A DNA stretch of 64,000 nt from IMG/VR virus record IMGVR_UViG_3300032116_000135, one strand, 5' to 3'. The notes under the pieces were generated by a model. The model saw only the letters and a list, made by a program, of their open reading frames with translations. It ran no database searches and was not told where the DNA came from. The position numbers and the translations under genes are program-made. Below are positions 1 to 61,011 of this stretch, piece by piece. The DNA is from an uncultured virus (IMG/VR IMGVR_UViG_3300032116_000135). Lineage: Duplodnaviria > Heunggongvirae > Uroviricota > Caudoviricetes. The number at the start of each line of letters is the position of its first letter. Within the stretch, counting starts at the first letter, position 1.

Positions 1-48
1 GCCATATATGTAAAGTATGGTAAATACACAATAGAAGAAACTCTATAA
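1..48 (+). CDS. 3' end of a truncated CDS (...AIYVKYGKYTIEETL*)
   Basis: Open frame from position 1 to TAA at 46-48, overlapping the next ATG (TAATG coupling). Confidence 0.5.
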   Translation, partial: AIYVKYGKYTIEETL

Positions 49-581
49 TGCCACATCAAATATCAATATCAGCGGTTACCGGAACTCCCCCATATTCAAT
101 CACAATATGTGATGTGACATTAACATATTGTTATTTAGTCACAGGTTCAACAACCATTCCCCCAACATTTATATTTGATGTTCCACCACCATTAGATGTT
201 GCCGATAGTGTTATTGTTAAGGTTACTGATAGTAATGGATGTCAAATATTTTATCCTTATAGTTGTCCTCCAACTCCAACACCCACACCATCATATAGTC
301 CAACCCCTACTCCAACACCAACAGGAACTTGTAGATGTATTCAGATAACAAATACTGGAGCGACAATTGGTTCATTTTATTTTACACAATGTGATGGAAC
401 GGTTACAAGTGTGTTACCAATTAATACGGGAACAACATTATATTATTGTGGGACAAATCCAATTAATGTTTCAGATTGTGACATTTATATTGGTGATAAT
501 TGTATATCAAATAGTTGTATTGCAATTACTCCAACAATATCCACAACACCAACAATGACTCCAACTCCGAGTAGTCCATAA
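48..581 (+). CDS. Cys-rich, Pro/Thr-repeat (mucin-like) protein, probable virion accessory protein
   Basis: 177 aa; two small Cys-rich beta domains linked by PPTPTPTPSYSPTPTPTPT, with a C-terminal TPTISTTPTMTPTPSSP. Confidence 0.7.
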   Translation: MPHQISISAVTGTPPYSITICDVTLTYCYLVTGSTTIPPTFIFDVPPPLDVADSVIVKVTDSNGCQIFYPYSCPPTPTPTPSYSPTPTPTPTGTCRCIQITNTGATIGSFYFTQCDGTVTSVLPINTGTTLYYCGTNPINVSDCDIYIGDNCISNSCIAITPTISTTPTMTPTPSSP

Positions 582-620
582 AAATAATTGTTTTATTATA
601 TCCTTTTATCCCATATTTTT

Positions 621-628
621 TATGTTTG
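621..628 (+). promoter_or_regulatory. Bacteroidota-type -7 promoter box TATGTTTG
   Basis: Exact TAnnTTTG match 12 nt upstream of the ATG at 641; no clear -33 element at canonical spacing. Confidence 0.45.
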
Positions 629-640
629 AGATAAAAATTA

Positions 641-1885
641 ATGTCAACAATTTTTATCCAAATAGCATCATTTAGAGACCCCCAACTCAATCCAACATTG
701 GAGGATATGATTAACAAATCAAAATACCCTCAGAACTTAAGAATTGGGATTTGTAACCAATATAATGTTGAGGATGAATTCACCCTTGAAAATTATAGAA
801 ATGATGACAGATTCAAAATTATTGATGTTTTGGACGTTGATAGTTTGGGTGTATGTTGGGCAAGAAATCAAGTTCAACAATTATATGATAATGAAGACTA
901 TACCCTCCAAATAGATTCTCATATGAGATTTGAACAAGATTGGGATGAAACCTTAATTAATATGATTAAGGACTTACAATCAAAAGGATATTCCAAACCA
1001 TTATTAACAGGATATGTTTCATCATTTGACCCAGACAATGACCCACAAGGTAGAGTTACCGAACCTTGGAGAATGACCTTTGATAGATTCATACCCGAAG
1101 GTGCTGTATTCTTTTTACCTGAAGTAATTCCAGGATGGAGAGAAATGACTAAACCAATACCAGCTAGATTCTACTCAGCCCATTTCTGTTTTACATTAGG
1201 GCAATTCAGTAAAGAAGTTCAACACGACCCCAACTATTATTTTCACGGAGAAGAGATAAGTGTGGGGGTTAGAGCATATACTCACGGATATGATTTATTT
1301 CATCCACATAGAGTTATTATTTGGCACGAGTACACTAGAAAAGGAAGAACTAAACAGTGGGATGTTGATTTAACTTGGTATAAGAAAAATGAATCATCTC
1401 ATCTAAGAAATAGAAAGTTGTTTGGTATGGATGGCGAAGTATTTAATCCAAATGATTTTGGGATTTATGGATTTGGTACTGAAAGAACATTGGAAGATTA
1501 TGAGAAATATGCTGGAATTAAATTCAATATAAGAGGAGTACAACAATATACCTTAGATAAGAAATATCCCCCTAATCCAAGTTATGATAATGATGAAGAT
1601 TACGTCAAAAGTTTTTCAAGTATATTCAAACATTGTATTGATATTCATTTTAGTCAAGTACAAGAAAAGGATTATGATTTTTGGGTGGTAGCTTTCCACA
1701 ATAAAAAAGATGAAACATTATTCAGACAAGACGCTGATGAGAATGAAGTTAATAGAATGTTAAATGATGAGGGGTATTGTAAGGTATGGAGAGAATTCCA
1801 AACCGTTGAGAAACCATCATATTGGGTTGTTTGGCCTCATTCAAAATCAAAGGGGTGGTGTGATAGAATAACTGGAAATTTATAA
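641..1885 (+). CDS. GT60-like polypeptide/hydroxyproline alpha-GlcNAc transferase (Pfam GlcNAc-like)
   Basis: N-terminal TIFIQIASFRDP, GVCWARNQVQQLY, LQIDSHMRF (DSH metal motif), FHGEE and IWHEY motifs typical of the Gnt1/GT60 family. Confidence 0.85.
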   Translation: MSTIFIQIASFRDPQLNPTLEDMINKSKYPQNLRIGICNQYNVEDEFTLENYRNDDRFKIIDVLDVDSLGVCWARNQVQQLYDNEDYTLQIDSHMRFEQDWDETLINMIKDLQSKGYSKPLLTGYVSSFDPDNDPQGRVTEPWRMTFDRFIPEGAVFFLPEVIPGWREMTKPIPARFYSAHFCFTLGQFSKEVQHDPNYYFHGEEISVGVRAYTHGYDLFHPHRVIIWHEYTRKGRTKQWDVDLTWYKKNESSHLRNRKLFGMDGEVFNPNDFGIYGFGTERTLEDYEKYAGIKFNIRGVQQYTLDKKYPPNPSYDNDEDYVKSFSSIFKHCIDIHFSQVQEKDYDFWVVAFHNKKDETLFRQDADENEVNRMLNDEGYCKVWREFQTVEKPSYWVVWPHSKSKGWCDRITGNL

Positions 1886-2598
1886 TGTTCACGGAACGTG
1901 AACAAACAAAAATAATGAACAAGATGTTAAGTATATTGGGATATAAATTAGCGGATATTGGATATTTTATTAATCTTAAAGAAAGTAAAGAAAGACTTAA
2001 TCATGTTAATAACTTGATTAAAAAATATAACATTCAGAACTTGAATAGATTTGAGGCGTTAAATGATGAACTGAAAGTTTATTCATGTACCAAGAGTCAT
2101 TTGAAAATATTTGAGGAATCTTTAAAACAAGATATTGAGATTTTATTTGTTTGTGAAGATGATTTTGATATTGAGGATATCTGTTATTACCCTGGCAAAA
2201 ATATAACGTTTAAAGAAACTTTAGAAAAAGTTTATAGTGATTTACAAACTATAGAATGGGATGTTGTCATGTTTGGATGTAACCCAAAAGAAGAATTAGT
2301 TGAGGTAACAAAAAATTTGGTTAAAGTTACTAAAAGTTCTGGTTCATGGTGTTACATTATAAAAAAAAGAGCATATGAATTTATTTTAAATAATTCAAAT
2401 TATAAAAGAGATTATATTGCTATAGATGATTTTTTACCATTATTAAATCAAAAAGGATTTATAACTCTCACAACTATACCCATGATAGTTAATCATGGTG
2501 TTGGATTTATATCCACTATGCAACCTGGTGAACCTGTAAACTATAATATTTGGATTAGGGGTAATTATGATAATTTTTATTTTGATTTAAAAAAGTAA
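1885..2598 (+). CDS. Glycosyltransferase family 25-like
   Basis: YFINLKESKERL, RFEA, CTKSHLKI and VCEDD motifs; TAATG-coupled to the GT60 gene. Confidence 0.8.
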   Translation: MFTEREQTKIMNKMLSILGYKLADIGYFINLKESKERLNHVNNLIKKYNIQNLNRFEALNDELKVYSCTKSHLKIFEESLKQDIEILFVCEDDFDIEDICYYPGKNITFKETLEKVYSDLQTIEWDVVMFGCNPKEELVEVTKNLVKVTKSSGSWCYIIKKRAYEFILNNSNYKRDYIAIDDFLPLLNQKGFITLTTIPMIVNHGVGFISTMQPGEPVNYNIWIRGNYDNFYFDLKK

Positions 2599-2599
2599 T

Positions 2600-4273
2600 A
2601 TGGGTAAAATAACATTAGTAACAGGATTATGGAATATAGGTAGGGACAACTTAAAAGAAGGGTGGTCAAGATCCTACCAGTATTATTTGGATAAATTCTC
2701 TCAACTATTAGATGTTGAGGAAAATTTAATCATATTTGGAGATCAAGAATTATTAGATTTTGTATTCAAAAAAAGAAAAAGAGAAAACACCCAGTTCATA
2801 TTAAGACATATTAATTGGTTCAAAGAAAATGAATTTTATCCAAAGATTCAAAAGATAAGACAAGACCCCAATTGGTTTAATCAAGTCGGTTGGTTATCAG
2901 ATTCAACTCAAGCAATACTTGAATTCTATAATCCACTTGTTATGTCCAAAGTATTTTTATTACACGATGCAAAAATATTGGACAAATTCAACTCAGAATA
3001 TATGTTTTGGATTGATGCTGGTTTAACAAATACCATTCATCCAGGTTATTTTACCCACGATAAAGTATTAGACAAATTACCAAAATATCTTGGTGATTTT
3101 AATTTTGTTTGTTTCCCTTATGAAGCGTCAACAGAAATTCACGGATTTGACTATAATGAAATGAATAGAATAACCAACTCAAAAATTAATAAGGTTGCAA
3201 GAGGTGGTTTCTTTGGTGGAAAGAAAGAAACAATTGGTGAGATTAATTCAATCTATTATCATCTTCTTAACGATACATTATCCAAAGGATATATGGGGAC
3301 TGAGGAAAGTATTTTCACCCTTATGACTTATCTGTATCCAAATATGATAACTTATTTTGATATTGAGGGAAATGGGTTAATGGGTAAGTTTTTTGAGGAT
3401 TTAAAGAATGATAAGTTAATACCCAAAAAAGAAACAAAAGAATTACCTAAAATAACAAACCATTCAATTGATAAGGTTGGATTGTATGTAATGTCATTTA
3501 ATTCTCCAAATCAATTTGAAACATTGATTAATTCAATGATGGAATATGATAGTGATTTCATAACCAAACCAAAGAAATTCTTATTGGATAATTCAACAGA
3601 TTTAACAACAACCCCAAGATATATTGAGTTATGTGAGCAATATGGATTTGAACATATTAAGAAAGATAATATTGGAATAATGGGTGGGAGGATATTCGTT
3701 GCCGAACATTTTAATGAAACTGATTTAGATTTTTATTATTTCTTTGAGGATGATATGGGGTTCTATCCCAAGAATGAAACTTGTAAAAATGGTTTTAATA
3801 GATATGTTAAAGGTTTGTATAGAAAAAGTTTGGAGATTATTCAAAAAGAAAACTTTGATTTTTTAAAATTAAACTATACTGAATTCTTTGGTGACAATGG
3901 AACACAATGGTCATGGTACAACGTAAGTCAGGATTTCAGACAAAAACATTGGCCGAACAAAACAAAGTTACCAGAATTTGGTTATGATATAGACGCCCCA
4001 AGAACTGAGTTTAAATATATAAAATCACATAAAGGAATTCCTTATGTTGGGGGTGAGATTTATTTATGTAATTGGCCTATTGTATTGAGTAAGGAGGGTA
4101 ATTACAAATGTTACTTGGAGACAAGATGGGGAAGACCTTTTGAACAAACTTTGATGAGTTATTGTTATCAAGAGACAATTAAGGGTAATATTAAACCAGG
4201 TTTATTATTAATCACCCCAACTGAACATAATAGGTTCGAACATTATATTTCCGCATTAAGAAAAGAAAATTAA
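2600..4273 (+). CDS. Two-domain glycosyltransferase: HtrL/YibB-like N-domain plus GT-A-fold C-domain
   Basis: N-domain ITLVTGLWNIGR...SKVFLL...YMFWIDAG...GGFFGG...TEES; C-domain LLDNS...YYFFEDDM. Confidence 0.7.
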   Translation: MGKITLVTGLWNIGRDNLKEGWSRSYQYYLDKFSQLLDVEENLIIFGDQELLDFVFKKRKRENTQFILRHINWFKENEFYPKIQKIRQDPNWFNQVGWLSDSTQAILEFYNPLVMSKVFLLHDAKILDKFNSEYMFWIDAGLTNTIHPGYFTHDKVLDKLPKYLGDFNFVCFPYEASTEIHGFDYNEMNRITNSKINKVARGGFFGGKKETIGEINSIYYHLLNDTLSKGYMGTEESIFTLMTYLYPNMITYFDIEGNGLMGKFFEDLKNDKLIPKKETKELPKITNHSIDKVGLYVMSFNSPNQFETLINSMMEYDSDFITKPKKFLLDNSTDLTTTPRYIELCEQYGFEHIKKDNIGIMGGRIFVAEHFNETDLDFYYFFEDDMGFYPKNETCKNGFNRYVKGLYRKSLEIIQKENFDFLKLNYTEFFGDNGTQWSWYNVSQDFRQKHWPNKTKLPEFGYDIDAPRTEFKYIKSHKGIPYVGGEIYLCNWPIVLSKEGNYKCYLETRWGRPFEQTLMSYCYQETIKGNIKPGLLLITPTEHNRFEHYISALRKEN

Positions 4274-4309
4274 AATCCATTATTCGTTGTATTTATATAG
4301 AAAAATCCG

Positions 4310-4795
4310 ATGGAGTTTAATATCAAGAAAAATGCGACACTTCCGCTTTTAAAATTACAAGTAGTGAAGAACGGAAGATTGGACTACAATAACTTTATGT
4401 CATTGATAGAACAATCTGCTTTATTTTTTTCAATGATTGATATTGAAACTGGTGTACCAAAAATATCCTCAAGACCAGCAGGATTTGTTGAGAAGACAAA
4501 TGTTGATCCAAATGCCGAAACGGAATATTATTTATATTATCAATTTCAAAACAGAGATACAAACAGAGTTGGTAGATATGAAGGACAATTTATGTTGAGG
4601 AGTAGCGATGGAGTACTAATCCTCCCGATTAGAGAAAAATTATTTATAACTGTTCAGGATTCATTCATTGCCGATGATTTAGAATATGATAGTTGTTATA
4701 CCTCAGAATTTCCTTGTTGTATTAATGGCCCTTACACCACAACAACCACTACTGAATGTTGTCCATGTACAACTACTACAACGACAATTCCATAA
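4310..4795 (+). CDS. BppU-like baseplate/virion protein with Cys-flanked poly-Thr tail
   Basis: FNIKKNATLPLL...YQFQNRDTNRVGRYEGQF resembles BppU N-terminal domains; C-terminus CCINGPYTTTTTTECCPCTTTTTTIP. Confidence 0.55.
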   Translation: MEFNIKKNATLPLLKLQVVKNGRLDYNNFMSLIEQSALFFSMIDIETGVPKISSRPAGFVEKTNVDPNAETEYYLYYQFQNRDTNRVGRYEGQFMLRSSDGVLILPIREKLFITVQDSFIADDLEYDSCYTSEFPCCINGPYTTTTTTECCPCTTTTTTIP

Positions 4796-4874
4796 TAAAA
4801 GATTGTTAATCTATTATTTTTTTGGTAAAAGTAAATACTTATAAGTAAATAAACACAAAATAAAAAAACTTAAT

Positions 4875-6554
4875 ATGCCATTAAAAGTAGATAGATTAGT
4901 CGCAAATATAGTTGATGCAATACAAATCCAAAAAAATGGACTCCCATTATCTTGTATTCCAATAACAAATAACGAATTAAATAATTTAATTAGTATAAAC
5001 GATTTAACTTGTGGTTCTTATTATTCAATTACCGATTATCAAACTTGTTATGATAGACCAGATTATGACAAATACAAAAACCCAATTGCGGTATCTAGTT
5101 CTTCATATGTAACAGGTGTAACTGAACCAATCATTGTTTTAGCAACATCAAGTAATACTTTAGCGGTTGACGCTTACCAACCAAGTTATCCGAATGATAA
5201 GATTAAGTATGATGTAACATATACTATAACTGAATCAGGTAATCCTGCATTTGGTAGAATTACTGAAAGAATTGATGAATTTGGAAATCGTACAGATTAT
5301 GATCATAGAAATATCACTTTCAAAAGATACCTATTAAGAACTTATGATAGATTAAGTCCTCTTCAAGGAACTGTTGAATTACAAGGAGATGGTACAGTAG
5401 TTGGTACATTAACAAATTTTACTTCACTTAGTTCAGGACAAATTATAGCTATCAGAAATAGCAATGAAACATTTTATGAAATTGTTAGTATTTCAGACGA
5501 TACCTCAATGATTGTAACAGGAGAAACAGTTACAGCAACAGGTGGTGGGTTTCAATTTTTCAATGCAAATTCCCATAGTTATGATAGTTATTATCCAAAT
5601 AATATTGATGGTCAAAGTGATTTTAATCTTTATAATACATTTGAAGCAATAACTATTGATGGTTGTATTAACACTTACATTGGAGATCATTCAAAATATT
5701 ATTTAAATGAAGGTATTGGAGATTTCTTATTGGCAAATAATGTTCTCAAAGATGGTCGTTATGAAAATAATACCATCGGTGATAGTTCTTATAATAACAC
5801 CTTTAATGATGACTGTACAGCTAATCAAATAGGTTATGGGTTTAGAAATAATATTACAGATGATGACTTTGATGAAAACGTAATTGGGACTTTTTTTGAA
5901 AATAACATCATTACATCAAATTTTTATGACAATCATATTGGTAATGATTTTAACGATAATATTATTATTTGTAGTAGTTTTTGGAGAAATCAGGTTGGAA
6001 ATGATTTTAGAAGTAATTGGTTAGATGGTAATTGGGGTTTTGATTTCCAAAATAATCAAATTGGAAACCAATTTAATAATAACGAAATTTATAAAGAATT
6101 TATAAAAAATGTTATTCTAAATGGTTATAATCAAAATAATACTTGGGACGCCGTAGAAGGCAATAAAATAGGTAACGGATTCAATGAAAATCAAATCTAT
6201 GCACCTTTTAGAGATAATATAATAAACGAATATTTTGAGAATAATACAATTGGTGATTCGTTAAATATTGGTTCAGGTAGTTTTTATGATAATAATATAG
6301 GTAACAACTTTGTTAATAATACTATTACAGGGTCTTGTTTTGACAACATAATTGGGGATAGCTTTGTTTCAAACATAATAGGTAACGATTTTAGATACAA
6401 TCAAATATTATACCCAGTGTCTGGATCTAATTTTTTAACTGCAACACATGTATATGCTGATTATAATTGTAAAATTATAAAATCGGATGACTCTAATTTA
6501 TACTTGGAATATTTGGCGGTAACAACACCTACATATGTTTCAATAACCGCTTAA
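4875..6554 (+). CDS. Asn-rich beta-helix repeat protein (putative fibre/receptor-binding protein)
   Basis: 559 aa; C-terminal half made of ~11-aa N-x-I-G-N-x-F-x-x-N repeats. Confidence 0.6.
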   Translation: MPLKVDRLVANIVDAIQIQKNGLPLSCIPITNNELNNLISINDLTCGSYYSITDYQTCYDRPDYDKYKNPIAVSSSSYVTGVTEPIIVLATSSNTLAVDAYQPSYPNDKIKYDVTYTITESGNPAFGRITERIDEFGNRTDYDHRNITFKRYLLRTYDRLSPLQGTVELQGDGTVVGTLTNFTSLSSGQIIAIRNSNETFYEIVSISDDTSMIVTGETVTATGGGFQFFNANSHSYDSYYPNNIDGQSDFNLYNTFEAITIDGCINTYIGDHSKYYLNEGIGDFLLANNVLKDGRYENNTIGDSSYNNTFNDDCTANQIGYGFRNNITDDDFDENVIGTFFENNIITSNFYDNHIGNDFNDNIIICSSFWRNQVGNDFRSNWLDGNWGFDFQNNQIGNQFNNNEIYKEFIKNVILNGYNQNNTWDAVEGNKIGNGFNENQIYAPFRDNIINEYFENNTIGDSLNIGSGSFYDNNIGNNFVNNTITGSCFDNIIGDSFVSNIIGNDFRYNQILYPVSGSNFLTATHVYADYNCKIIKSDDSNLYLEYLAVTTPTYVSITA

Positions 6555-11030: not shown

Positions 11031-12908
11031 TTATGGACACTTTATTTCGTCCTTGTATTTTCTAAAAAATGAATCAGATACTTGTCTTGAATTCTTAACT
11101 AAAATATCAGAACCTTTTGTGTATGTATATGTATTGATTTGGTTACTTTCGTCAGGTTTAATTCTGAATCGTATACTCAATCTTAATTCATCACATCCCC
11201 TCTGTCCTTTATTTGACCAATAAAAATGTAAATTTTCAATAGGAACAATAAGATAGTTATCAAATATGATTCCATTGATTTGACTTTTTATTTTTTCTAA
11301 ATATCCATCACCATTTTCTTTTACATAATTATAAATTTCTGTGATTACTTTATTATATTCACCTAAATAATCTTTTTTCACATTCTTTAAACTACTTTGT
11401 TTGAATATTGAAAAGAACTCTGAAAGATAACTATCAACCTCCACGTCCATTTTTTTAACTTCAAAATGGGTATTATCACCAAATATAATTTCTTTATTAT
11501 TATTTTCATCAATAATATACAGTGGTTTCTTTGTTATCAAATCGGCTTTGATTGGAGGGACATCACTTATTAATGCGGAATTAATACACTCTTTCATTTT
11601 ATTAACATACACATTAAAATCTTTTTCACCACTTTTAAAATGTTTTAATAGTTCAAATAATGTATAAAATTCTTCAGCATCACACGATAATGGTAAACTT
11701 AATTTGGTTTGTTTAATATCAAATTCATCACCTTCAAATGATTGTTCATATTTAGCATATTCTAATTCTCTAACCGCACTTAATATATCATTTAAATCAT
11801 CCTTGGATATATCATCAATAATTAATCCCGATAATCTTTTTTTGACTTCTTCTTTTTTGAATGTGTCACTTTCTATGAAATCTGCTAATATTTTCAAAAA
11901 TGATATTGTTCTACCATAATTTTCATCGGATAGTGAAATATCAATTACTTTTTGAAAGGATAATGTTCTATTAAAATTATAGAATTTACTTATTACTTTG
12001 ATGGAATCATTTAAACTTTTCTTAAGTTTTTTATCTTCAAGTGTTCTTCTCAATTTTAATAACTTACAAAAAGGATCGGATAATCCTTTCCTTTGAGTTT
12101 TTTTAAGACAAAGTGAATTTAAATAATCAATTTCTATTTCATCTTCAGGAAATAAAGATTGTTGTTGTTCCAAAAACAACATAAAATCTTTAACTTTAAA
12201 TTTAACTTCCTCCAATATATTTTCCTTTTTATCTTTAAGTTGATATAACTCATGAACAAATTTCCAATTCACAACACTCCAAAAGTTTTTAATATATTCA
12301 TCCCTTTTATTTTGGTATTTCAAATAATAAGCATGTTCCCATAAGTCCAAACCTAATATTGGAAATCCTCCACCTTCAACAACATTCATCAATGGATTAT
12401 CTTGATTTGGTGTTGACATAATTTTTAACCTACCATTTTTTGTTAAAACCAACCAACACCATCCAGATCCGAATCTATCTTTAGATTCTTCATTGAATTT
12501 ATTTTTGAATTCATTTATTGAACCAAAATCTTTTATAATTCTTGATTTTAGTTCTGATGGAATATCTTGTTTATTAGGTGATAACATTTTCCAAAACAAA
12601 GCATGATTAAAGGCTCCCCCACCATTGTTTCGGATTGTTTTTGGAAATTTACTAATTGATTTAATAATATCTTCCAATTCTAAATCACCATAATTTTTTT
12701 TGGATAACGCGTCGTTTAGTTTCTTAACATATGTTTTATAATGTCCATTATAATGAACATCCATGGTTTTACCATCAATAAATCTTTTAAGGGAAGATTT
12801 AGCATAAGGTAATTTATCAATCCCAATCTTTTTCATTTCCAATAATAGAAACTCACCCGCATTGATTTTTTCTGTTAATAAATTGATTTTGTTTTCAAGT
12901 ATCATCAT
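11031..12908 (-). CDS. sod: Fe/Mn superoxide dismutase (Mn-type signature) fused to a ~390-aa unknown C-terminal region
   Basis: LPY...TMDVHYNGHYKTYV, NNGGGAFNHALFW, FGSGWCW, NQDNP, DLWEHAYY: all four metal ligands present; start likely 12908 (ORF track gives 12935). Confidence 0.9.
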   Translation of the reverse strand: MMILENKINLLTEKINAGEFLLLEMKKIGIDKLPYAKSSLKRFIDGKTMDVHYNGHYKTYVKKLNDALSKKNYGDLELEDIIKSISKFPKTIRNNGGGAFNHALFWKMLSPNKQDIPSELKSRIIKDFGSINEFKNKFNEESKDRFGSGWCWLVLTKNGRLKIMSTPNQDNPLMNVVEGGGFPILGLDLWEHAYYLKYQNKRDEYIKNFWSVVNWKFVHELYQLKDKKENILEEVKFKVKDFMLFLEQQQSLFPEDEIEIDYLNSLCLKKTQRKGLSDPFCKLLKLRRTLEDKKLKKSLNDSIKVISKFYNFNRTLSFQKVIDISLSDENYGRTISFLKILADFIESDTFKKEEVKKRLSGLIIDDISKDDLNDILSAVRELEYAKYEQSFEGDEFDIKQTKLSLPLSCDAEEFYTLFELLKHFKSGEKDFNVYVNKMKECINSALISDVPPIKADLITKKPLYIIDENNNKEIIFGDNTHFEVKKMDVEVDSYLSEFFSIFKQSSLKNVKKDYLGEYNKVITEIYNYVKENGDGYLEKIKSQINGIIFDNYLIVPIENLHFYWSNKGQRGCDELRLSIRFRIKPDESNQINTYTYTKGSDILVKNSRQVSDSFFRKYKDEIKCP

Positions 12909-12931
12909 AAGATATAAATATCCTATAAATA

Positions 12932-14698
12932 TCAATGTGATACGTTAATCTTATTCATTATCTGTTCTATAAATTCAGCCTTATCTATATTGTCACCCAT
13001 AACAGTATCAATGATATTCTTTTTATTAATTAACATATCATATATAACACCCTCAATAGTATTATCAAAGATTGGGTAATAAACTGAAACACAATTTTTC
13101 TGTCCATATCTATAAGCTCTATCTTCGGCTTGTTGGTGATGGGCAGGAACAAATGATAAGTCATTGAATATAACGGCTTCCCCAGCGGTTAATGTAATAC
13201 CAACACCCGCAGCTTGTATATTACCAACGAATACAGATATCTTTTCATTCTCTTGAAATTGATCAACAGCGTATTGTCTTTGAGCCTTTGAACAAGTCCC
13301 ATCCAAATAAACCGATTTCTTCCCAAAGTGGGAATGAATTTGTTGGAGGGTATCAGTAAAGTTTGTAAAGACAATAACCTTCTTTCCCTGTTCCAATATA
13401 TTTTCAATCAATTCAATTGTATTCGGTACTTTGCCTTCGGCAATTGATTGTCTAACCTTCATTAACTTATTAAACTGAACGGTTAATGATTTTGATTCGT
13501 CAGGGTTTTTATTATACCACTCATAATATTCCCCCATTAATTCTTCATATTTCTTTGATTTTAATCTCAAATAGATTGGGGTTATAATCTTCTCAGGTAA
13601 ATCCAAGACATCTTCTTTTAATCTTCTTAACACTTGTCTTGATGTCCTATCTCTCAACTCTTCCAAGTTAGACGCACCATTAACATTCCACACCTTTCTA
13701 TTTCCAGCCTTGAATTGATAACCTTGACAATACCGAATAACATAAGCCATCCAATTTTGAGCGACAGGACTTTCAATTAAGTTTAATAAGTTATAATAAT
13801 TGATTGGTCTGTTTGTCATTGGAGTTCCTGTTAATAACCAAAGGTATTCTGAACTTTTAACAAAACTATTAATCAATTTTGTTCTCAATGATTGGGGATT
13901 GGCAACATAATGTGCTTCGTCCATTATAATCAAATCAAAATTACCTTTTGTAATTGGGGAGTTTTCTTTATCCTTTAAATCATAAAAGTTTTTAACAATA
14001 TCATAATTTATAATAACGATATCGTGTTCGGTGGAGAAATTCTTTCCCTCACATATATAAACACTTCTATCAGAATAATTTTTAATTTCCCTCTCCCACT
14101 TTAACTTTAATGATGCGGGACATATTATTAAGATTTTCTTAACGTTTGTTTCTAGTGATGCGATAATTGCCGCGGTTGTCTTTCCTAAACCCATATCATC
14201 TGCTAATATGAATTTTTTACTACCAACCAATTTTTCAATTGCAATCTTTTGATGTTCCAAAGGCATCCTATGACTATACTTTGAATAATCAATTTTAACT
14301 TCAGTTGTGTTATGAGTTTTTAATAAGGCTGCTTTAGGTAACCACATATCTGATAATGTATCACCAGTATTAAACTTACCCCAAATGTGATAAGATTTTT
14401 CTTTATCAACCAATAACTTTTCAACCCAAACATCTGTGGGGACGTTTAACATATTTTTTTCATCAGCAATCTTTTTTGCAAAATAAGGTTCAATGTTAAC
14501 CCATTTCTTCGCCACCTTTGGTTCAACTGAATTATAATTTACTATATATTCGGATTGTGATCTTGTTGGGTAAAATTTCTTATTAGTATCCTTTAGATAT
14601 TTTAATTTAAGGATATAGTTATTACCCCCCGAATAATTATCTAATATGTCGAGAGCTTTGGTTTCAATAAGATTCGATGTTTTTCCTGTTAAAGTCAA
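12932..14698 (-). CDS. SNF2-family helicase/translocase (SMARCAL1/HARP-like)
   Basis: ILADDMGLGKT, DEAH, LTGTPMTNRP, AGVGITLT, QAEDRAYRYGQ. Confidence 0.92.
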   Translation of the reverse strand: MTLTGKTSNLIETKALDILDNYSGGNNYILKLKYLKDTNKKFYPTRSQSEYIVNYNSVEPKVAKKWVNIEPYFAKKIADEKNMLNVPTDVWVEKLLVDKEKSYHIWGKFNTGDTLSDMWLPKAALLKTHNTTEVKIDYSKYSHRMPLEHQKIAIEKLVGSKKFILADDMGLGKTTAAIIASLETNVKKILIICPASLKLKWEREIKNYSDRSVYICEGKNFSTEHDIVIINYDIVKNFYDLKDKENSPITKGNFDLIIMDEAHYVANPQSLRTKLINSFVKSSEYLWLLTGTPMTNRPINYYNLLNLIESPVAQNWMAYVIRYCQGYQFKAGNRKVWNVNGASNLEELRDRTSRQVLRRLKEDVLDLPEKIITPIYLRLKSKKYEELMGEYYEWYNKNPDESKSLTVQFNKLMKVRQSIAEGKVPNTIELIENILEQGKKVIVFTNFTDTLQQIHSHFGKKSVYLDGTCSKAQRQYAVDQFQENEKISVFVGNIQAAGVGITLTAGEAVIFNDLSFVPAHHQQAEDRAYRYGQKNCVSVYYPIFDNTIEGVIYDMLINKKNIIDTVMGDNIDKAEFIEQIMNKINVSH

Positions 14699-16576: not shown

Positions 16577-19500
16577 ATGGCAAATAAAGTATTCGTTTCT
16601 CCTGGTGTCTATACTTCCGAGGTCGATTTAAGCTTTGTGTCTCAAAGTGTTGGTGTAACAACTTTGGGTATTGTCGGTGAAACTATTAAAGGTCCAGCCT
16701 TCGAACCAATTTTCATCACAAACTATGACGAATTTCAAACTTACTTTGGTGGAACTTCTCCTGAGAAATTTATTAACACTCAAATTCCGAAATATGAGGC
16801 GGCTTATATAGCTAAAGCATATTTACAACAATCAAATCAATTATTTGTTACAAGAATTCTTGGTTTATCAGGTTATGATGCGGGTCCTTCTTGGACAATA
16901 ACAACAAAAGCAAATGTTGATCCAACAACTGTTGATTTCTATTGTCAAAGTGCAATTACATTAAGTTGTGTAACGACTTGTATTGATTATTTAACAATAC
17001 CTTTTACAGCAAACTTTACAGGTTGTACTAATAGTACTGATAGTATTACATTTACTGATCCGACAAATGAACTTCCTGCTGAGTTATTAAACAAATTATA
17101 TTTACCTTACGAAAAATTTGATGGTAGTGTTTCGACAATTTATGCAAACATGACACAACAAATTTTTGATGTAATGAATGATCCATTCAGTGAGAGTGAA
17201 TCTGTTTATTATTACGGTCCAATTTCAGGTGCTGACTATACAAATTTAGTTACGGCTGGATTTACCGCGGCAACAAATGTATTTGGTGTTGAGGATGTAA
17301 ATAAAGATTTATGTGATTTAACATCATCATTAAATGATCCTTGGTATTATGCAACTTTTGATAATTTGGGTAATGCACAATACACAGGTTTTTCAATGTT
17401 TAATGTTATTGACATTACATTAATACCTACGACAACAACAACTACAATAACTCCAACAACTACAACTACCACAACTAACCCTTGTGTTACTCCAACCCCA
17501 TTAATAACTACAACAACTACTACGGCTAAACCAGTGTTCTGTTATACAGGTTCAGTAACAGGTGTTCTATATGTTTGGGAAGGTATGGCGTTCACTGATT
17601 ATGATGATTTAGTAATTGCAACATTCCGTTCAAGAGGTTTAGCAACATATAATTCTGATGATGGGGCGGTTTATGAAGTATCAGGTTTAACTGATGTAAG
17701 TATGGCTTGTACAGGTGCATACTCAGGGGTAACTAAAAATCCGTTTGCTACATTTGGATTGAATGTAACAAATAAAGATGGACAAACCTTATTCTTTGAA
17801 ACTTCGTTTACTAATTCAGATTCAAAATACTTAACTAAAGTTTTTGGTGTTTCTAACTTTGCTAAGCCTAAAACTACAGTACCATTATTTGTTGAGGAAA
17901 TATTCCAATCGTTATTAACTTATGGTTATAGAAAAGGTTATATTAGAGGTTTAAGTTGTTCATTAACAGCGTTACCAAATGCAAGACAACAGACTGATCC
18001 AACATCAATTGCTTGGTATTTGGAAAGATATCAATCACCTGAATCACCATGGGTGGTATCTGAATTAAGAGGTAATAAAGTGTTCAACTTATTCAAGTTT
18101 GTAACAATTGCTGACGGTAATGATGCTAATTATGAGGTTAAATTATCTATAGGTAATATATCATTCAATAATGGGACTTTTGATGTATTTGTTAGAGATT
18201 ATTTTGATAATGATTCTAATCCTGTTGTCCTTGAAAAATTTACAAATTGTTCAATGAACCCTCAAGAAAACAACTTCATTGCTAAGAAAATTGGAACAAT
18301 GGATGGAGAATTCCAATTGAACTCTAAATATGTTATGTTGGTAATGAATGAAGACGCACCAATAGATGCGTTACCTTGTGGTTTCGAAGGATACCAATTT
18401 AGAGAATACGCCGGTGTTAGACCTCCATTCCCTATTTATAAAACTAAATACGATTTTCCTGGTGAAGTTGTATATAATCCACCTTTTGGATTATCATCAG
18501 GTGCTGATGACATTGTTAGAAGTGCTGGTGATAATGTAAGAAGAACATATCTTGGTATATCTGATACAATCGGATATGACTTAGATTTCTTTGCTTATAA
18601 AGGTAAACAACTTCCTTTATCAGTATGTACTGATACAAGCGGTGACAATTGGTTGTACAAAACAAGAGGATTCCACATGGACGTAAATGCTAGTGGTATT
18701 ACAATTGGGAATAGTTTTGCAACAAGTGGAACACCAGCGTTCTATGTTGGTTCCGCTCCATTTACATCAGACCCAACAAATGAATCAAGTCCATATTATA
18801 GATTGTTCTCACGTAAGTTTACTTTATTATGTTCAGGTGGTTTTGATGGCTGGGACATTTATAGAGAGAGTAGAACTAATGAAGATAAGTTTATTTTAGG
18901 TAGAACTGGTTATTTGAAAGGTTCTTGTCCTTCATTTAGATATCCTACAGCATCAGGTTGGGGAGCATTTAAAACAATTACTGTTGGTAATAATAGTGTT
19001 GACTACGCAAATACTGACTATTACGCATACTTGTTAGGACAACAAACATTCTCTAATCCTGAAGCGGTTAATATTAATGTATTTGTTACTCCAGGTATTG
19101 ATTATGTAAATCATTCAAATCTTGTTGAATCAGCAATTGAAATGGTTGAATTTGATAGAGCTGACTCAATATACATTTGTACAACACCTGACTATAAAAT
19201 GTTTGTACCAACTACTGGTGATCAGTTAGATTTGATTTACCCTCAAGAAGCGGTTGATAATTTAGAAACTGCGGGTATTGATTCTAATTATACCGCAACT
19301 TACTATCCTTGGGTATTAACAAGAGATACAGTTAATAATACACAAATTTACATTCCACCAACTGCGGAAGTATGTAAAAACTTAGCATTAACTGATAACA
19401 TTGCTTTCCCTTGGTTCGCCGCCGCTGGTTATACTCGTGGTATTGTAAACGCAATCAAAGCGAGAAAGAAATTGACTCAAGAAGATAGAGACACTCTTTA

Positions 19501-19903
19501 CAAAGGAAGAATTAATCCAATTGCAACTTTCTCTGATGTAGGAACAGTAATTTGGGGTAACAAAACTCTACAAATTAAAGAATCCGCTTTAGATAGAATC
19601 AATGTACGAAGATTGTTATTACAAGCTCGTAAATTAATTTCAGCGGTATCAGTTAGATTATTGTTTGAACAAAATGACGATAAAGTTAGACAAGACTTCT
19701 TAAACGCTGTTAATCCTATCTTAGACGCAATAAGAAGAGATAGAGGTTTATACGATTTCCGTGTAACAGTTTCTTCAGATCCTGCCGATATAGATAGAAA
19801 TCAATTAACAGGTAGTATCTATATCAAACCTACAAAGGCTTTAGAATTTATAGATATTACATTCTACATCACCCCAACAGGTGCATCGTTTGAGAATATT
19901 TAA
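16577..19903 (+). CDS. Contractile tail sheath protein with insertions
   Basis: VSPGVYTSEVDLS start; YTATYYPW, PWFAAAGYTRG, LYKGRINPI, WGNKTLQ, RINVRRLL, LFEQND, KPTKALEFI. Confidence 0.95.
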   Translation: MANKVFVSPGVYTSEVDLSFVSQSVGVTTLGIVGETIKGPAFEPIFITNYDEFQTYFGGTSPEKFINTQIPKYEAAYIAKAYLQQSNQLFVTRILGLSGYDAGPSWTITTKANVDPTTVDFYCQSAITLSCVTTCIDYLTIPFTANFTGCTNSTDSITFTDPTNELPAELLNKLYLPYEKFDGSVSTIYANMTQQIFDVMNDPFSESESVYYYGPISGADYTNLVTAGFTAATNVFGVEDVNKDLCDLTSSLNDPWYYATFDNLGNAQYTGFSMFNVIDITLIPTTTTTTITPTTTTTTTNPCVTPTPLITTTTTTAKPVFCYTGSVTGVLYVWEGMAFTDYDDLVIATFRSRGLATYNSDDGAVYEVSGLTDVSMACTGAYSGVTKNPFATFGLNVTNKDGQTLFFETSFTNSDSKYLTKVFGVSNFAKPKTTVPLFVEEIFQSLLTYGYRKGYIRGLSCSLTALPNARQQTDPTSIAWYLERYQSPESPWVVSELRGNKVFNLFKFVTIADGNDANYEVKLSIGNISFNNGTFDVFVRDYFDNDSNPVVLEKFTNCSMNPQENNFIAKKIGTMDGEFQLNSKYVMLVMNEDAPIDALPCGFEGYQFREYAGVRPPFPIYKTKYDFPGEVVYNPPFGLSSGADDIVRSAGDNVRRTYLGISDTIGYDLDFFAYKGKQLPLSVCTDTSGDNWLYKTRGFHMDVNASGITIGNSFATSGTPAFYVGSAPFTSDPTNESSPYYRLFSRKFTLLCSGGFDGWDIYRESRTNEDKFILGRTGYLKGSCPSFRYPTASGWGAFKTITVGNNSVDYANTDYYAYLLGQQTFSNPEAVNINVFVTPGIDYVNHSNLVESAIEMVEFDRADSIYICTTPDYKMFVPTTGDQLDLIYPQEAVDNLETAGIDSNYTATYYPWVLTRDTVNNTQIYIPPTAEVCKNLALTDNIAFPWFAAAGYTRGIVNAIKARKKLTQEDRDTLYKGRINPIATFSDVGTVIWGNKTLQIKESALDRINVRRLLLQARKLISAVSVRLLFEQNDDKVRQDFLNAVNPILDAIRRDRGLYDFRVTVSSDPADIDRNQLTGSIYIKPTKALEFIDITFYITPTGASFENI

Positions 19904-21520: not shown

Positions 21521-23113
21521 ATGGATTTTCAATTTTTTATAACTAACAATAGTTCTGGATTTAAAACAAAAGAAAAATGGTTATCCTATAACCATCCTGA
21601 ATTGTATAATAAAATTATTGAATATTCATCTAAAATTAACTTGGAACTTTCTTTTAAAGAAAAGATTTGGTTCTATTATAATAATTTAAAAGAAAGACCA
21701 AAATGTGTTTCTTGTGGGGGTGATATAAAGTTTAGAGAAAGGTTTGATAAACCATATGGTGAATTTTGTTCTTTAACTTGTATTAACACAAATAAAGAAG
21801 AAATGGTTAAAAGACAAAGTAAAACATTAAAACAAAAATATGGTGTTGATTTTTTTCCTCAACATGATGATTTTATTAAAAAACAACGAAAGACAAAACT
21901 AGAAAAATATGGGGATGAAAATTTTAATAATCCTCAAAAAAATAAGGAAACTAAATTACTAAAATATGGTAATCCTGTATTTAACAATTTTGAAAAATAT
22001 AAAGATACTTGTATCTTAAAATATGGGACGGACAACTATAGTAAATCAAACAACTACTCAAAAAAAATAAAAGAAAAATTCAAACATCTTTACCCTGAAT
22101 TGGAATTTAAAAAGATTGAAAAAGAATTTGTTGAGATAAAGTGTTGTGATTGTGGAGAGTCTACTGATATATCCAAACAACTATTATATGAGAGATATAA
22201 ACGTAATTATGTTATATGTACAAAATGTAACCCAATAGGACATAAAAGTAGAAGTGGACATGAAAAAGAGATATGTGAATTTCTAGCAGAAAATAATATT
22301 GAGTTTGTAACTAACAAAAAATTTAATAATAGTAAAACAGAAATTGATATTTTTATACCTGACTTCAATTTAGGAATCGAAGTTAATGGTGTGTATTGGC
22401 ACAATGAGTTATTTAAAAATTCAAATTATCATCTTGATAAGACATTAAGGTCAGAAAAAGAAAATATAACTTTGATTCATGTTTTTGAGGATGAATGGAT
22501 ATATAAAAAAGATATTGTTAAATCTATTATAAAAAATAGATTAAAACTAAATGGTAAAACAATATATGGTAGAAAGTGTGAAATTAGAGAATTAGATACA
22601 AAAACTACACAAGATTTTTTAAACCAAAACCATATACAGGGTAATGTAAATTCTAAATACAGAATAGGATTATTTTATGAAAATCAATTAGTTTCAGTTA
22701 TGACATTTGGAAATGGTAGAATAATGATGGGTGGTAAAAGTAATGAGTTTGAATTAACCAGATTTTGTAATTTGATAAATTATAATATTATTGGATCAGC
22801 CTCTAAATTACTTAATTTTTTTATTAAAAAATATGTACCACAAAAGATTGTATCATATTCTGACGTTAGATTATTTAATGGGGAATTATATAAAAAATTA
22901 AATTTTAATAAAATACATCAATCCAAACCGAATTACTGGTATGTTATTGATGACATCAGACATAACAGATTTAATTTTAGAAAATCCATATTAGTTAAAC
23001 ATGGATTTGATAAGAATAAAACAGAAAAGGAAATAATGTTTGAAAGAAAAATATATCGAATATATGATTGTGGTAATATTAGATGGGAATTAACACCAAG
23101 TTATGGATTATAG
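21521..23113 (+). mobile_element. Free-standing putative homing endonuclease: CxxC motifs, KYG repeats, Vsr/PD-(D/E)xK-like nuclease, GNAT-like C-domain
   Basis: CVSC, CCDC, CTKC; repeated KYG; EIDIFIPDFNLGIEVNGVYWH; FELTRFC...ASKLL...SYSD; Lys/Asn-rich and placed between the tube and chaperone genes. Confidence 0.7.
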
Positions 23114-38648: not shown

Positions 38649-39335
38649 ATGAGAGTTGATTTAAAAATTATTGAAGAAATCAAAAGACATAATCAGATTA
38701 CTAGATATATCAATGAACAGGAATTACCACCTCCTCCACCACCAGGTGATGCAGGGGAATTACCTCCTCCACCTCCAGGTGACGCAGGTGCTCCACCCCC
38801 TCCTCCTGCACCTGGTGTAGGTGCTCCACCACCAGCCGCTCCACCACAACCTGTTGATGTTGCTGCGGATCCTGATGTGGAAAAAATTGGGGATGAAAAG
38901 GAAAAGGAAAACAAAGAAGAAATTAAAGTAACTGATTTAGTTAAAAGTCAAAAATCTGTTGAAGATAAACAAGAAGAATATTTTGAAACATTATTCAACC
39001 ACCTCAACGATTTGGAACAAAAACTTGGGACTATGGATGACATAATTAACAAGTTAAATACACTAGAGACTAAGATAGAAAAATATAGAACAAAAAGTCC
39101 TGAAGAAAAAATGGAATTAAGAACATTGGATTCAGGACCATTCAATCAGAAATTGAGTCAATTCTTTGAAGATAAAGAAGAAGACTTTGAAAAATCTGGA
39201 AAAGAACAATATATTATAACTCCTGACGATGTTGAAGGTTACTCACCAAATGAAATCAAAAGAAGTTTTAGAGACTTCGGAGATACGGAAATGACACCTG
39301 AAAACGACATGAGCGGATTCAAGAAAATATATTAG
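38649..39335 (+). CDS. Poly-proline / acidic coiled-coil protein (possible head core or scaffold component)
   Basis: PPPPPPGDAG repeats followed by a coiled-coil, acidic C-terminal half. Confidence 0.6.
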   Translation: MRVDLKIIEEIKRHNQITRYINEQELPPPPPPGDAGELPPPPPGDAGAPPPPPAPGVGAPPPAAPPQPVDVAADPDVEKIGDEKEKENKEEIKVTDLVKSQKSVEDKQEEYFETLFNHLNDLEQKLGTMDDIINKLNTLETKIEKYRTKSPEEKMELRTLDSGPFNQKLSQFFEDKEEDFEKSGKEQYIITPDDVEGYSPNEIKRSFRDFGDTEMTPENDMSGFKKIY

Positions 39336-40326: not shown

Positions 40327-41091
40327 ATGAATCACCCTTTCATTTCATGTAAATGTATAACTTATGGTAGAGTAAGTTTGTTAGAGGAAAGTTTATACTC
40401 TTTTTTAAATCAAAACTATGATGGAAAAAAAGAAATGATTATAGTTAATGACTACCCATTACAAACATTAAAATTCGATCACCCTGACGTTAAGATTTAT
40501 AATCTGAGTGAAACATTTCAAACTATTGGTGAAAAAGAAAATTATGCAGTTTCGTTATGTTCTGGTGAAATTATTGCGGTTTGGGATGATGACGATATTG
40601 CATTACCAAATCACCTATCAAACGTTTCAAAATATTTTATTAAAGATACCGATTTACTTCATTGGCAAAAAGGAGTATTTTATAACGAACCAAATATTAC
40701 TGCAATAACAAGTTTGGGAAATTCGGGTATTGTATATAGTAAACAAATTTGGGAGAAGGTAGGTAAACACCCAATAGAGAATGCCGGATATGATGCAACA
40801 TTTGTTCATAACATTATGAGAATGTCTAACAAAATTGTTAAAGCGTCACCACCTGACAATGAAGTATCGTGGTTTTACATGTGGGGAGGAAGAGATTATC
40901 ATATGAGTGGGATGGGAACTGATTCACCAGAAAGACCTAATGTCATTGTAAGACATTCACAATATATTGAAAATGAAAGAAGGAAAGGTAAAATACCAAC
41001 AGGTGAAATAGAATTAAAACCAAAATGGAAAAAAGATTATCAAAAATTATTAAACGATTATAACAATGGCAATAAAGAAAAAAGAAATTAG
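40327..41091 (+). CDS. Glycosyltransferase family 2-like
   Basis: ISCKCITYGR, SFLNQNY, EMIIVND, GEIIAVWDDDD. Confidence 0.85.
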   Translation: MNHPFISCKCITYGRVSLLEESLYSFLNQNYDGKKEMIIVNDYPLQTLKFDHPDVKIYNLSETFQTIGEKENYAVSLCSGEIIAVWDDDDIALPNHLSNVSKYFIKDTDLLHWQKGVFYNEPNITAITSLGNSGIVYSKQIWEKVGKHPIENAGYDATFVHNIMRMSNKIVKASPPDNEVSWFYMWGGRDYHMSGMGTDSPERPNVIVRHSQYIENERRKGKIPTGEIELKPKWKKDYQKLLNDYNNGNKEKRN

Positions 41092-59835: not shown

Positions 59836-61011
59836 ATGAGAACATTAAACAGACATATTAGAATTTCACCTGAAGTTATAAGTAGTGACTTATTCTTGGT
59901 TAGATTTAATGCTGGTGGGCAAGTAATTCCATCAGAAATCGATCCATGCTGTGAAATCACAACAACAACCACAACAAGTAATTTAACAGGGTTGACTTAT
60001 GTTTATTCATCAATGACACAACTATTGTCAGGTGGGACAAATGGAACATCATTATTAACTGGTTTAACAATCCCAATTTTATTAACTGAAACGGCAACTG
60101 ATATTGGTTACTATTCTGTTTTTGATGGAATGATATTACAACAAGATGTAATGAATAATTTCATATTTACAGGGGATTCTGTATTTCCATATTATACAGT
60201 TATATTGTATAATACCTCAGAGAATGAGTTGAAAAAATACTTAAGTTTCTCAAGTTATGAAATTTCTTGGGGAGATGGACAAACAGAACCAATCTCACCA
60301 TATACTCCTTTACCAATATCACACACATATGGAAGTGACGGAGAATACATAATATCAGTAAAAGGAATGAGTCCTTGGGGATTTAATACAATTAAAAAAA
60401 CTGTGTACATCCCAATTACAGGAGCAACTACCGATAATCCGAATGGTACTGCTTATTTCACACCATTGGGTGGTAGTTGGTCAGGAACGCCAATTATGTA
60501 TGATTATATATTCAGCGGAGATGCAAGTTGTGATGCGACAATTGATGGATTTGATGATTTCTTATCAGGAAGTCCTTTGGTTATTAGTGGATACACAAAA
60601 TCATCATTGAGTGACTTACAAGTTTATGGGCCTAAAAATACTTTAGTAGGTGGTAAATATAGAGTTGGACCCGTTACAGGTTCAAGTGGGGCTGTTGGAG
60701 TATTCTATGGAACTCCATCAAACTCTGATTATACCGCCTATACAATAAATAATATTGATTATTATGATTACCCTGATGATATAACAATTTTCATTGTCAG
60801 TGGGGTATCTTCGGTTGATTATGTGTGTTCGGCAATAACTAAAAATGAAGTGTTATTGAATGTAATTTTTGAGCCTGAAGTACAATCAAATGTGTTTATC
60901 GAAAGGGGTAAAAATTCTGGACTTGAGAGATTGATTAGATTAGGGGAGGTTGATAATATAGGTGACTTAGAAAAGTATGGGTATGGATTTTTCAATATAA
61001 TAAATACGTAA
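59836..61011 (+). CDS. Structural protein with PKD-like domain and CC-poly-Thr motif
   Basis: DPCCEITTTTTTS; YEISWGDG...SHTYGSDGEYIISV. Confidence 0.65.
   Translation: MRTLNRHIRISPEVISSDLFLVRFNAGGQVIPSEIDPCCEITTTTTTSNLTGLTYVYSSMTQLLSGGTNGTSLLTGLTIPILLTETATDIGYYSVFDGMILQQDVMNNFIFTGDSVFPYYTVILYNTSENELKKYLSFSSYEISWGDGQTEPISPYTPLPISHTYGSDGEYIISVKGMSPWGFNTIKKTVYIPITGATTDNPNGTAYFTPLGGSWSGTPIMYDYIFSGDASCDATIDGFDDFLSGSPLVISGYTKSSLSDLQVYGPKNTLVGGKYRVGPVTGSSGAVGVFYGTPSNSDYTAYTINNIDYYDYPDDITIFIVSGVSSVDYVCSAITKNEVLLNVIFEPEVQSNVFIERGKNSGLERLIRLGEVDNIGDLEKYGYGFFNIINT

Follow-up and report, generated by a model that had tools for sequence, protein, structure and literature searches.

A GT60 glycosyltransferase cassette beside Thr/Pro-rich proteins in a large contractile-tailed phage and its predicted role in virion O-glycosylation

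The cassette and its enzymes

The window analyzed here is the whole 64,000-nucleotide stretch of the uncultured Caudoviricetes record IMGVR_UViG_3300032116_000135. Profile searches identify it as part of a large contractile-tailed phage, with PolB, tail sheath, gp25, baseplate J, gp32, RecA, DnaB, and ribonucleotide reductase; its GC content is about 31%, and relatives of the phage reach up to 304 kb. At the start of the window, three glycosyltransferase genes lie between two genes for Thr-rich proteins, an arrangement that the initial annotation had interpreted as a mucin-type O-glycosylation system. The five open reading frames (ORFs) were found where it had placed them, all on the plus strand, and the three glycosyltransferase genes are tightly coupled as described, with a 1-base overlap between the GT60 and GT25 genes followed by a 1-base gap before the fusion gene. 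Together with two further genes of the window, the set is as follows:

48-581, plus strand: Cys-rich protein of 177 aa, 11 of them Cys, carrying two Thr/Pro tracts; candidate acceptor, accessory
641-1885, plus strand: GT60 enzyme resembling polypeptide alpha-HexNAc-transferases, 414 aa, soluble; predicted initiator (PF11397, E 1.4e-71)
1885-2598, plus strand: GT25-family glycosyltransferase, 237 aa, in a variable slot; predicted chain modifier (PF01755, E 6.8e-7)
2600-4273, plus strand: HtrL/YibB-like plus GT2-like two-domain protein (the fusion), 557 aa; predicted extender (PF09612, E 4.6e-17)
4310-4795, plus strand: 161-aa protein with a conserved N-terminal domain and an optional Thr-rich tail, TTTTTTECCPCTTTTTT; candidate acceptor
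16577-19903, plus strand: tail sheath with an inserted Thr-rich tract (PF04984, PF17482)
59836-61011, plus strand: 391-aa protein encoded among the baseplate genes, with six consecutive Thr and no family match; weak candidate acceptor

PolB lies 2.4 kb downstream of the cassette, which precedes PolB in many relatives too. At least half of the words of the region occur in 14 public runs, of which six are labeled lake or freshwater and eight fungus metagenome. Since an independent run contains 1312-6490 as one contig with zero differences, the cassette is not an assembly artefact. Between the window and the relative L001, synonymous codon changes outnumber replacement changes in all four genes compared (65/51, 117/67, 19/4, and 51/18). 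The promoter and terminator scan stayed at chance level (48 vs 46.8; 4 vs 3.0), and the RNA run X20 yielded scattered short pieces alone, with no evidence of expression seen there.

Assignment of the 641-1885 protein to GT60 with an intact active site is supported concordantly by profile search, an alignment of 110 homologs, and fold search. The PF11397 match reaches 242 bits against a cut-off of 21, and residues D92, H94, E205, and H229 are invariant in the 110 homologs, D92-S-H94 forming a DxH motif in place of DxD. DxH is described as the mark of GT27 and GT60, two families that carry out polypeptide Ser/Thr O-glycosylation (10.1101/2019.12.31.891697). Judged by position, E205 and H229 would be the xE and the metal-binding C-terminal His (C-His), respectively. 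The structure model built from the 110-sequence alignment has a pLDDT of 97, compared with 31 for a single-sequence model. Foldseek returned polypeptide N-acetylgalactosaminyltransferases (ppGalNAc-Ts) in all PDB matches listed through rank 43, and the independent aligner VIA likewise placed them first, with Z-scores of 21.2 and 20.0 against 16.9 for the next fold; the top viral structural matches are same-family proteins of phages and giant viruses. Because identity to solved ppGalNAc-Ts is merely 10-16%, the donor sugar cannot be read from them. The protein comprises a catalytic domain (residues ~1-310, starting at residue 4) and a C-terminal all-beta domain (~325-414), and the fold searches bear almost entirely on the former. 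Sequence searches of the PDB gave nothing significant for the GT60, the fusion, or the 4310-4795 protein.

A membrane segment is absent from all three cassette enzymes, the highest 19-residue hydropathy of the GT60 being 0.88. The type II membrane anchor of the Golgi mucin-initiating OGNT subtype is thus missing from 641-1885, which is predicted to resemble that subtype in its working mode without being a member. Tandem GT60 paralogs occur in several phages, and some proteins are as long as 2,461 aa and contain as many as five stretches fitting the GT60 profile (L023, L032, L034, L063, and L066; P0121-P0132). Two giant-virus bins (L041 and L042), either real or mis-binned phage DNA, hold close GT60 homologs (56-58%), one of which adjoins an HtrL fusion and a TP protein.

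The other two enzymes are less sharply defined. The PF01755 match of the GT25 protein (29.8 bits vs a cut-off of 24) covers positions 69-198 of 199, and the protein carries a CEDD motif. In the fusion, PF09612 (HtrL_YibB) matches residues 3-252, and the HtrL-like N-terminus holds the motifs WIDAG and GTEE; with 70.8 bits against the 264.9-bit cut-off of the YibB/HtrL equivalog TIGR02192, it is a relative at the Pfam level only. Residues 285-557, which include an FEDD motif in the GT2-like C-terminus, have no Pfam match and score 0.97 to a GT2-containing Atlas cluster in which 25% of members carry PF00535. As HtrL is described as a family without assigned function (PMC10327509), the four glycosyltransferase-like domains counted initially reduce to one firm domain (GT60), one probable, and two inferred. 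Among 79 viral GT60 loci, the HtrL fusion occurs in 46, a GT25 homolog in just 12, and a tract protein in 55 (17, 4, and 23, respectively, of the 31 de-replicated loci of at least 16 kb), so the conserved core consists of the GT60 and the HtrL fusion. In relatives, the GT25 slot is filled by other genes, carbamoyltransferases among them; the cassette is a GT60 and fusion core around a swappable slot.

Thr/Pro tracts and their association with GT60

Tracts were defined as 15-residue windows with at least 6 Thr and at least 12 Thr/Pro/Ser, or as 5 Thr in a row. By this rule, 4 of the 39 ORFs of the window carry tracts, compared with 0.15 in shuffles, so the tracts are real and above chance; none of the four proteins is a replication or metabolic enzyme. 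Corresponding counts are 7 distinct ORFs of 258 in the relative G009 (about 1 in shuffles), 13/403 in phage XacN1 (1.4 in shuffles), and 1/460 in RaK2. Among the proteins bearing tracts are two sheaths, two that PHROG classes as virion structural, and one with a weak Hoc-like match. Several tracts of the window are Pro-free Thr runs, and since they use mixed synonymous codons, they are not a simple DNA repeat.

The initial annotation had recognized the tracts of the two proteins flanking the cassette and missed the Thr runs in the sheath and in the 59836-61011 protein. In the 48-581 protein, which has no match in Pfam, PHROG, or NCBIfam searches, the tracts span residues 76-92 and 162-177, and other strains show in-frame extra units in the C-terminal tract. 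A joint skipping the gene (window 26-579) in 3/4 runs suggests that near-identical strains lack it, which is weak evidence because the shorter side of the joint has only 23 letters. The 4310-4795 protein scores 0.85 to an Atlas cluster with PF10651 on 13% of members, making a BppU_N-like domain a lead; its Thr-rich tail is absent in 5/15 aligned homologs and replaced by longer Thr/Pro tails in others. The sheath, with its tract at residues 284-317 (about 17426-17527), is the only tract carrier of the window that is certain to be a virion protein. Among 73 homologs covering this site, a Thr tract is present in 21 and a longer insertion lacking Thr runs in 14, and 38 have nothing there. Among close relatives (L114-L193), the same site may hold a Thr tract, an insertion of ~90-120 residues, both, or nothing. 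The sheath tract was tried and discarded as a predictor of GT60: of eight GT60-positive records, five have the tract, two no insertion, and one another insertion, the 24 negatives being fragments. In the 59836-61011 protein, which matches neither Pfam nor PHROG families, the six-Thr run occupies residues 42-47.

Across 50,697 GenBank phage records, GT60 homologs occur in four (XacN1, Xoo-sp13, CM1, and RAS14), and full-length HtrL fusion homologs in the same four. The three of these phages that were tested have 16, 16, and 6 (TP)3T sites, while eight control large phages (Atu_ph07, SCTP-2, RaK2, Mel-JY01, LR756508, immuto_2-6A, CC2, and B23), chosen by us and including three XacN1 relatives, all lack both GT60 and such sites. 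In XacN1, several tract proteins adjoin sheath and baseplate genes, and two belong to PHROG virion families. At least two Schiff-positive proteins are described in XacN1 virions, with phage ORF328 and ORF334 suggested as their makers (PMC5852040), and ORF334 is the GT60. Glycosylated virion proteins are reported in this way for a cultured phage that carries the same GT60 and HtrL-fusion genes, and such staining evidence exists for XacN1 alone.

The association was also approached from the opposite side, by picking contigs of at least 36 kb solely by a (TP)5T or (AP)5A DNA pattern and then searching them for GT60. GT60 was found in 8/31 TP-picked contigs and in 0/29 AP-picked ones (Fisher p 0.005, a value that overstates the significance because most positives come from a few related myovirus groups). 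Six of the TP records, one of them GT60-positive, proved to read otherwise when frame and strand were checked, leaving GT60 in 7/25; five of these 25 and the AP control stand without a frame check. The record removed as an independent case is G046, in which the pattern encodes Gly-Val on the other strand. In this complete 108-kb phage (L460:9586-13540), a divergent 339-aa GT60 adjoins a 242-aa gene and a 735-aa protein that combines a PASTA domain with long Gly-Val repeats.

GT60 is by no means confined to phages: over all of life, clustering at 50% identity yields 6,618 groups. A bacterial genome scan gave 489 matches; among the best 79 loci, a tract protein lies within 6 kb in 27, spanning Bacteroidota, Gemmatimonadota, Acidobacteriota, Verrucomicrobiota, and Burkholderiales, some of the metagenome-assembled contigs being possibly mis-binned phage. 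The same GT60-tract link in bacteria contradicts the idea of a phage-specific system. In Burkholderiales, TssE/F/G/A and a fimbrial gene precede the GT60 gene, which faces Rhs and VgrG. Among 11 visible VgrG tails, seven terminate in (TP)n, and the remaining four carry different Ser/Thr repeats at their ends, Pro-rich in three cases; glycosylation of this type VI secretion system (T6SS) spike beside GT60 is possible. Burkholderiales-type T6SS clusters with GT60 were seen at L497, L515-L517, L520, L523, L525-L529, L531, L532, L535, L539, L541, L542, and L550.

A (TP)4T site is present in 18 of 27 hand-picked bacterial genomes and lies inside the 13-kb GT60 locus in 11 of the 18; in 7 of those 11, every (TP)4T match falls inside the locus, which makes up 0.16-0.35% of the genome. 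In a GT60 tree (FastTree, midpoint root, topology without statistical test), phage and bacterial sequences interleave, and the clade of the window is sister to a group including Saprospiraceae sequences, a hint that the phage may infect Bacteroidota. With such a tree, no direction of transfer can be read.

Proposed pathway and alternatives

Because the GT60 family recurs beside Thr/Pro-rich proteins in both phages and bacteria, the phage of the window probably sugar-coats such stretches of its virion, and we consider a phage-encoded, cytoplasmic mucin-type O-glycosylation of Thr/Pro tracts on its own virion proteins the likely function of the cassette. This reading builds on the family, the fold, the intact motifs, and the genomic association described above, to which it adds a presumed donor, acceptor, order of steps, and benefit. 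UDP-GlcNAc is present in the bacterial cytoplasm, and during infection the soluble GT60 would take UDP-HexNAc, most likely UDP-GlcNAc, from the host cytoplasm. With a divalent metal held by DxH and His229, it would place an alpha-linked HexNAc on tract Thr residues of tail and accessory virion proteins. The fusion of HtrL and GT2-like domains would then lengthen the chain, and the enzyme of the variable slot, here GT25, would diversify the glycan. Dense O-glycans stiffen and protect such stalks, and the likely benefit would be stiff, hydrated, protease-resistant stalks on the particle surface.

A number of observations weigh against this interpretation. The flanking 48-581 and 4310-4795 proteins look accessory, and their status as virion proteins is that of candidates; the GT60 identity and the non-random GT60-tract link of the original proposal held. 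Two GT60 phages have a sheath without the tract. G154 (complete, 296 kb), with a short GT60 and no HtrL fusion, has one Ser/Thr tract protein in 307 ORFs, and G137 (122 kb), with GT60 and fusion, a single five-Thr run in 145 ORFs. Of the GT60 viral records, many of them fragments, 15/38 lack the strict (TP)4T pattern, and real TP tracts occur in the absence of GT60 in three small phages that are at least 98% complete. Besides, the co-occurrence counts lack phylogenetic independence, and hand-picking enriched the set of 27 bacterial genomes for tract-positive loci, so that the unbiased figure is 27/79. In the text and legend available for XacN1, the Schiff-positive bands bear no protein names, and this phage has other glycosyltransferases. 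Altogether, the GT60-tract link is strong, yet obligatory in neither direction.

These exceptions bear most directly on the possibility that GT60 starts protein O-glycosylation mainly on other acceptors, such as proteins of the capsid, the tube, or the host, or on hydroxyproline, the residue that Gnt1 modifies in Skp1. The near-tractless phages G154 and G137 and the Gly-Val-repeat neighbor of the divergent G046 enzyme would fit other acceptors, and Gnt1 is reported to require hydroxyproline (PMC6939170). Yet a search with one model, PF13640, found no prolyl-hydroxylase-type gene in five GT60 phage genomes, three of them incomplete (control match in 2/14), and the Pro-free Thr runs of the window argue against a hydroxyproline acceptor; we regard this explanation as unlikely. 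It is still less probable that the cassette alters the host surface (lipopolysaccharide or lipooligosaccharide core, or capsule) and blocks superinfection, the tracts being plain linkers. GT25 and HtrL are described as families of lipopolysaccharide/lipooligosaccharide loci (PMC10327509), glycosyltransferase clusters of jumbo phages have been interpreted as host-surface modifiers (PMC7824862), and TP linkers are present in phages without GT60. This would leave unexplained the polypeptide-transferase fold, the tract enrichment, and the bacterial genomes in which the only (TP)4T site adjoins GT60, and the lack of a membrane segment in any of the three enzymes also speaks against it. Hypermodification of phage DNA, finally, appears highly improbable: the cassette does precede PolB in the window and in many relatives, and DNA-glycosylating phage glycosyltransferases are known (10.1101/2023.12.21.572611), but the enzyme has a polypeptide-transferase fold, and its homologs in bacteria belong to T6SS and surface-protein loci. 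The profile search of the window, which covers only part of the genome, showed no base-hydroxylating gene; the Tet_JBP model had no match anywhere, controls included.

Beyond virion glycosylation by the phage of the window, we tentatively propose a generalization that seems quite possible: prokaryotic GT60 may initiate a general cytoplasmic mucin-type O-glycosylation exchanged between phages and bacteria, coating bacterial surface proteins as well as the Thr/Pro stalks of contractile injection machines, which in myophages would be those on sheath and accessory proteins and in T6SS those of VgrG spikes ending in (TP)n, with the swappable slot varying the glycan. Prokaryotic GT60 is common, yet an assigned substrate was not found in the open literature; the locus supplies candidate acceptors that can be purchased as peptides. 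The same core is present in four cultured phages, and for one of them, XacN1, proteomics data on the virion have been deposited (PXD008065, named in PMC5852040). If the proposal is correct, mucin-type O-glycosylation extends beyond the secretory pathway of eukaryotes, and lake phages of a widespread group wear a glycan coat that varies. Glycosylation of some T6SS spikes may then occur as well, and glycoengineering would gain a useful HexNAc-transferase that is soluble and acts on peptides.

Four other genes of the window deserve mention. An extra GT2 gene (40327-41091, plus strand; PF00535, E 1.9e-10) lies between gp32 and RecA, far from the cassette, and may share its pathway. An Fe/Mn superoxide dismutase (residues 38-228) is fused to ~400 residues without a family match (11031-12935, minus strand). 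Between the putative tube and baseplate genes, a 530-aa gene (21521-23113, plus strand) with DUF7487 and weak PvuRts1I-like and Mom-family matches is possibly a mobile endonuclease, and a 228-aa protein (38649-39335, plus strand) has a poly-Pro stretch followed by a charged region.

Comparison with known systems

The protist GT60 enzymes, namely the T. cruzi OGNT mucin initiator and Gnt1 of Toxoplasma and Dictyostelium, share with the enzyme of the window the Pfam family, the DxH motif, the GT27-like fold, and Thr-rich mucin-like candidate acceptors (PMC9472816, PMC6939170). A review credits TcOGNT1 with the activity, where the initial annotation had named TcOGNT2. Unlike these enzymes, the protein of the window, whose activity is predicted, is phage-encoded and anchor-free, has an extra C-terminal beta domain, and stands alongside bacterial-type extenders. 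The closest solved fold is that of the animal and apicomplexan ppGalNAc-Ts of GT27 (Z 21.2 with VIA, rmsd 3.6 over 278 aligned residues), with DxH and the C-His common to both. GT27 is a sister family only, since identity is 10-16% and neither the ricin lectin domain nor the membrane anchor was detected in 641-1885. To our knowledge, the enzymes of mycobacteriophage virion glycosylation are not GT60. There, glycans are likewise added to the phage's own particle proteins (Freeman et al. 2023), and they are described at capsid and tail-tube C-termini (PMC12619734).

By description, the phage of the window also recalls the moraphages, freshwater contractile-tailed phages of 200-307 kb with PolB, four core glycosyltransferase groups, and predicted Bacteroidota hosts (PMC12619734). 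The available parts of that paper give no glycosyltransferase family and use "threonine", "proline", and "mucin" 0 times, and the combination of GT60 and virion glycosylation was not found in the accessible portions of either the moraphage (PMC12619734) or the jumbo-phage paper (PMC7824862). Glycosylation of phage virions and initiation of mucin glycans by GT60 have each been described before. Their combination was not found in the open literature, which leaves most subscription journals uncovered, and neither was a paper that connects GT60 with tracts of phages or of VgrG.

The nearest relative among cultured phages is the XacN1 ORF334 locus, which has counterparts in Xoo-sp13, RAS14, and CM1; GT60 (46-48%) and the HtrL fusion (39-41%) are identical to this extent over full length and stand in the same order. 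The slot is occupied by a carbamoyltransferase in XacN1 and by GT25 in the window, and the XacN1 fusion homolog, ORF330 (41% identical to 2600-4273), is annotated as hypothetical. In the parts of the XacN1 paper covered, the GT60 is not named, and "threonine" and "proline" occur 0 times in the main text (PMC5852040). XacN1 has many TP-tract proteins, and its virion glycoproteins have been tentatively ascribed to the phage's own glycosyltransferases (PMC5852040).

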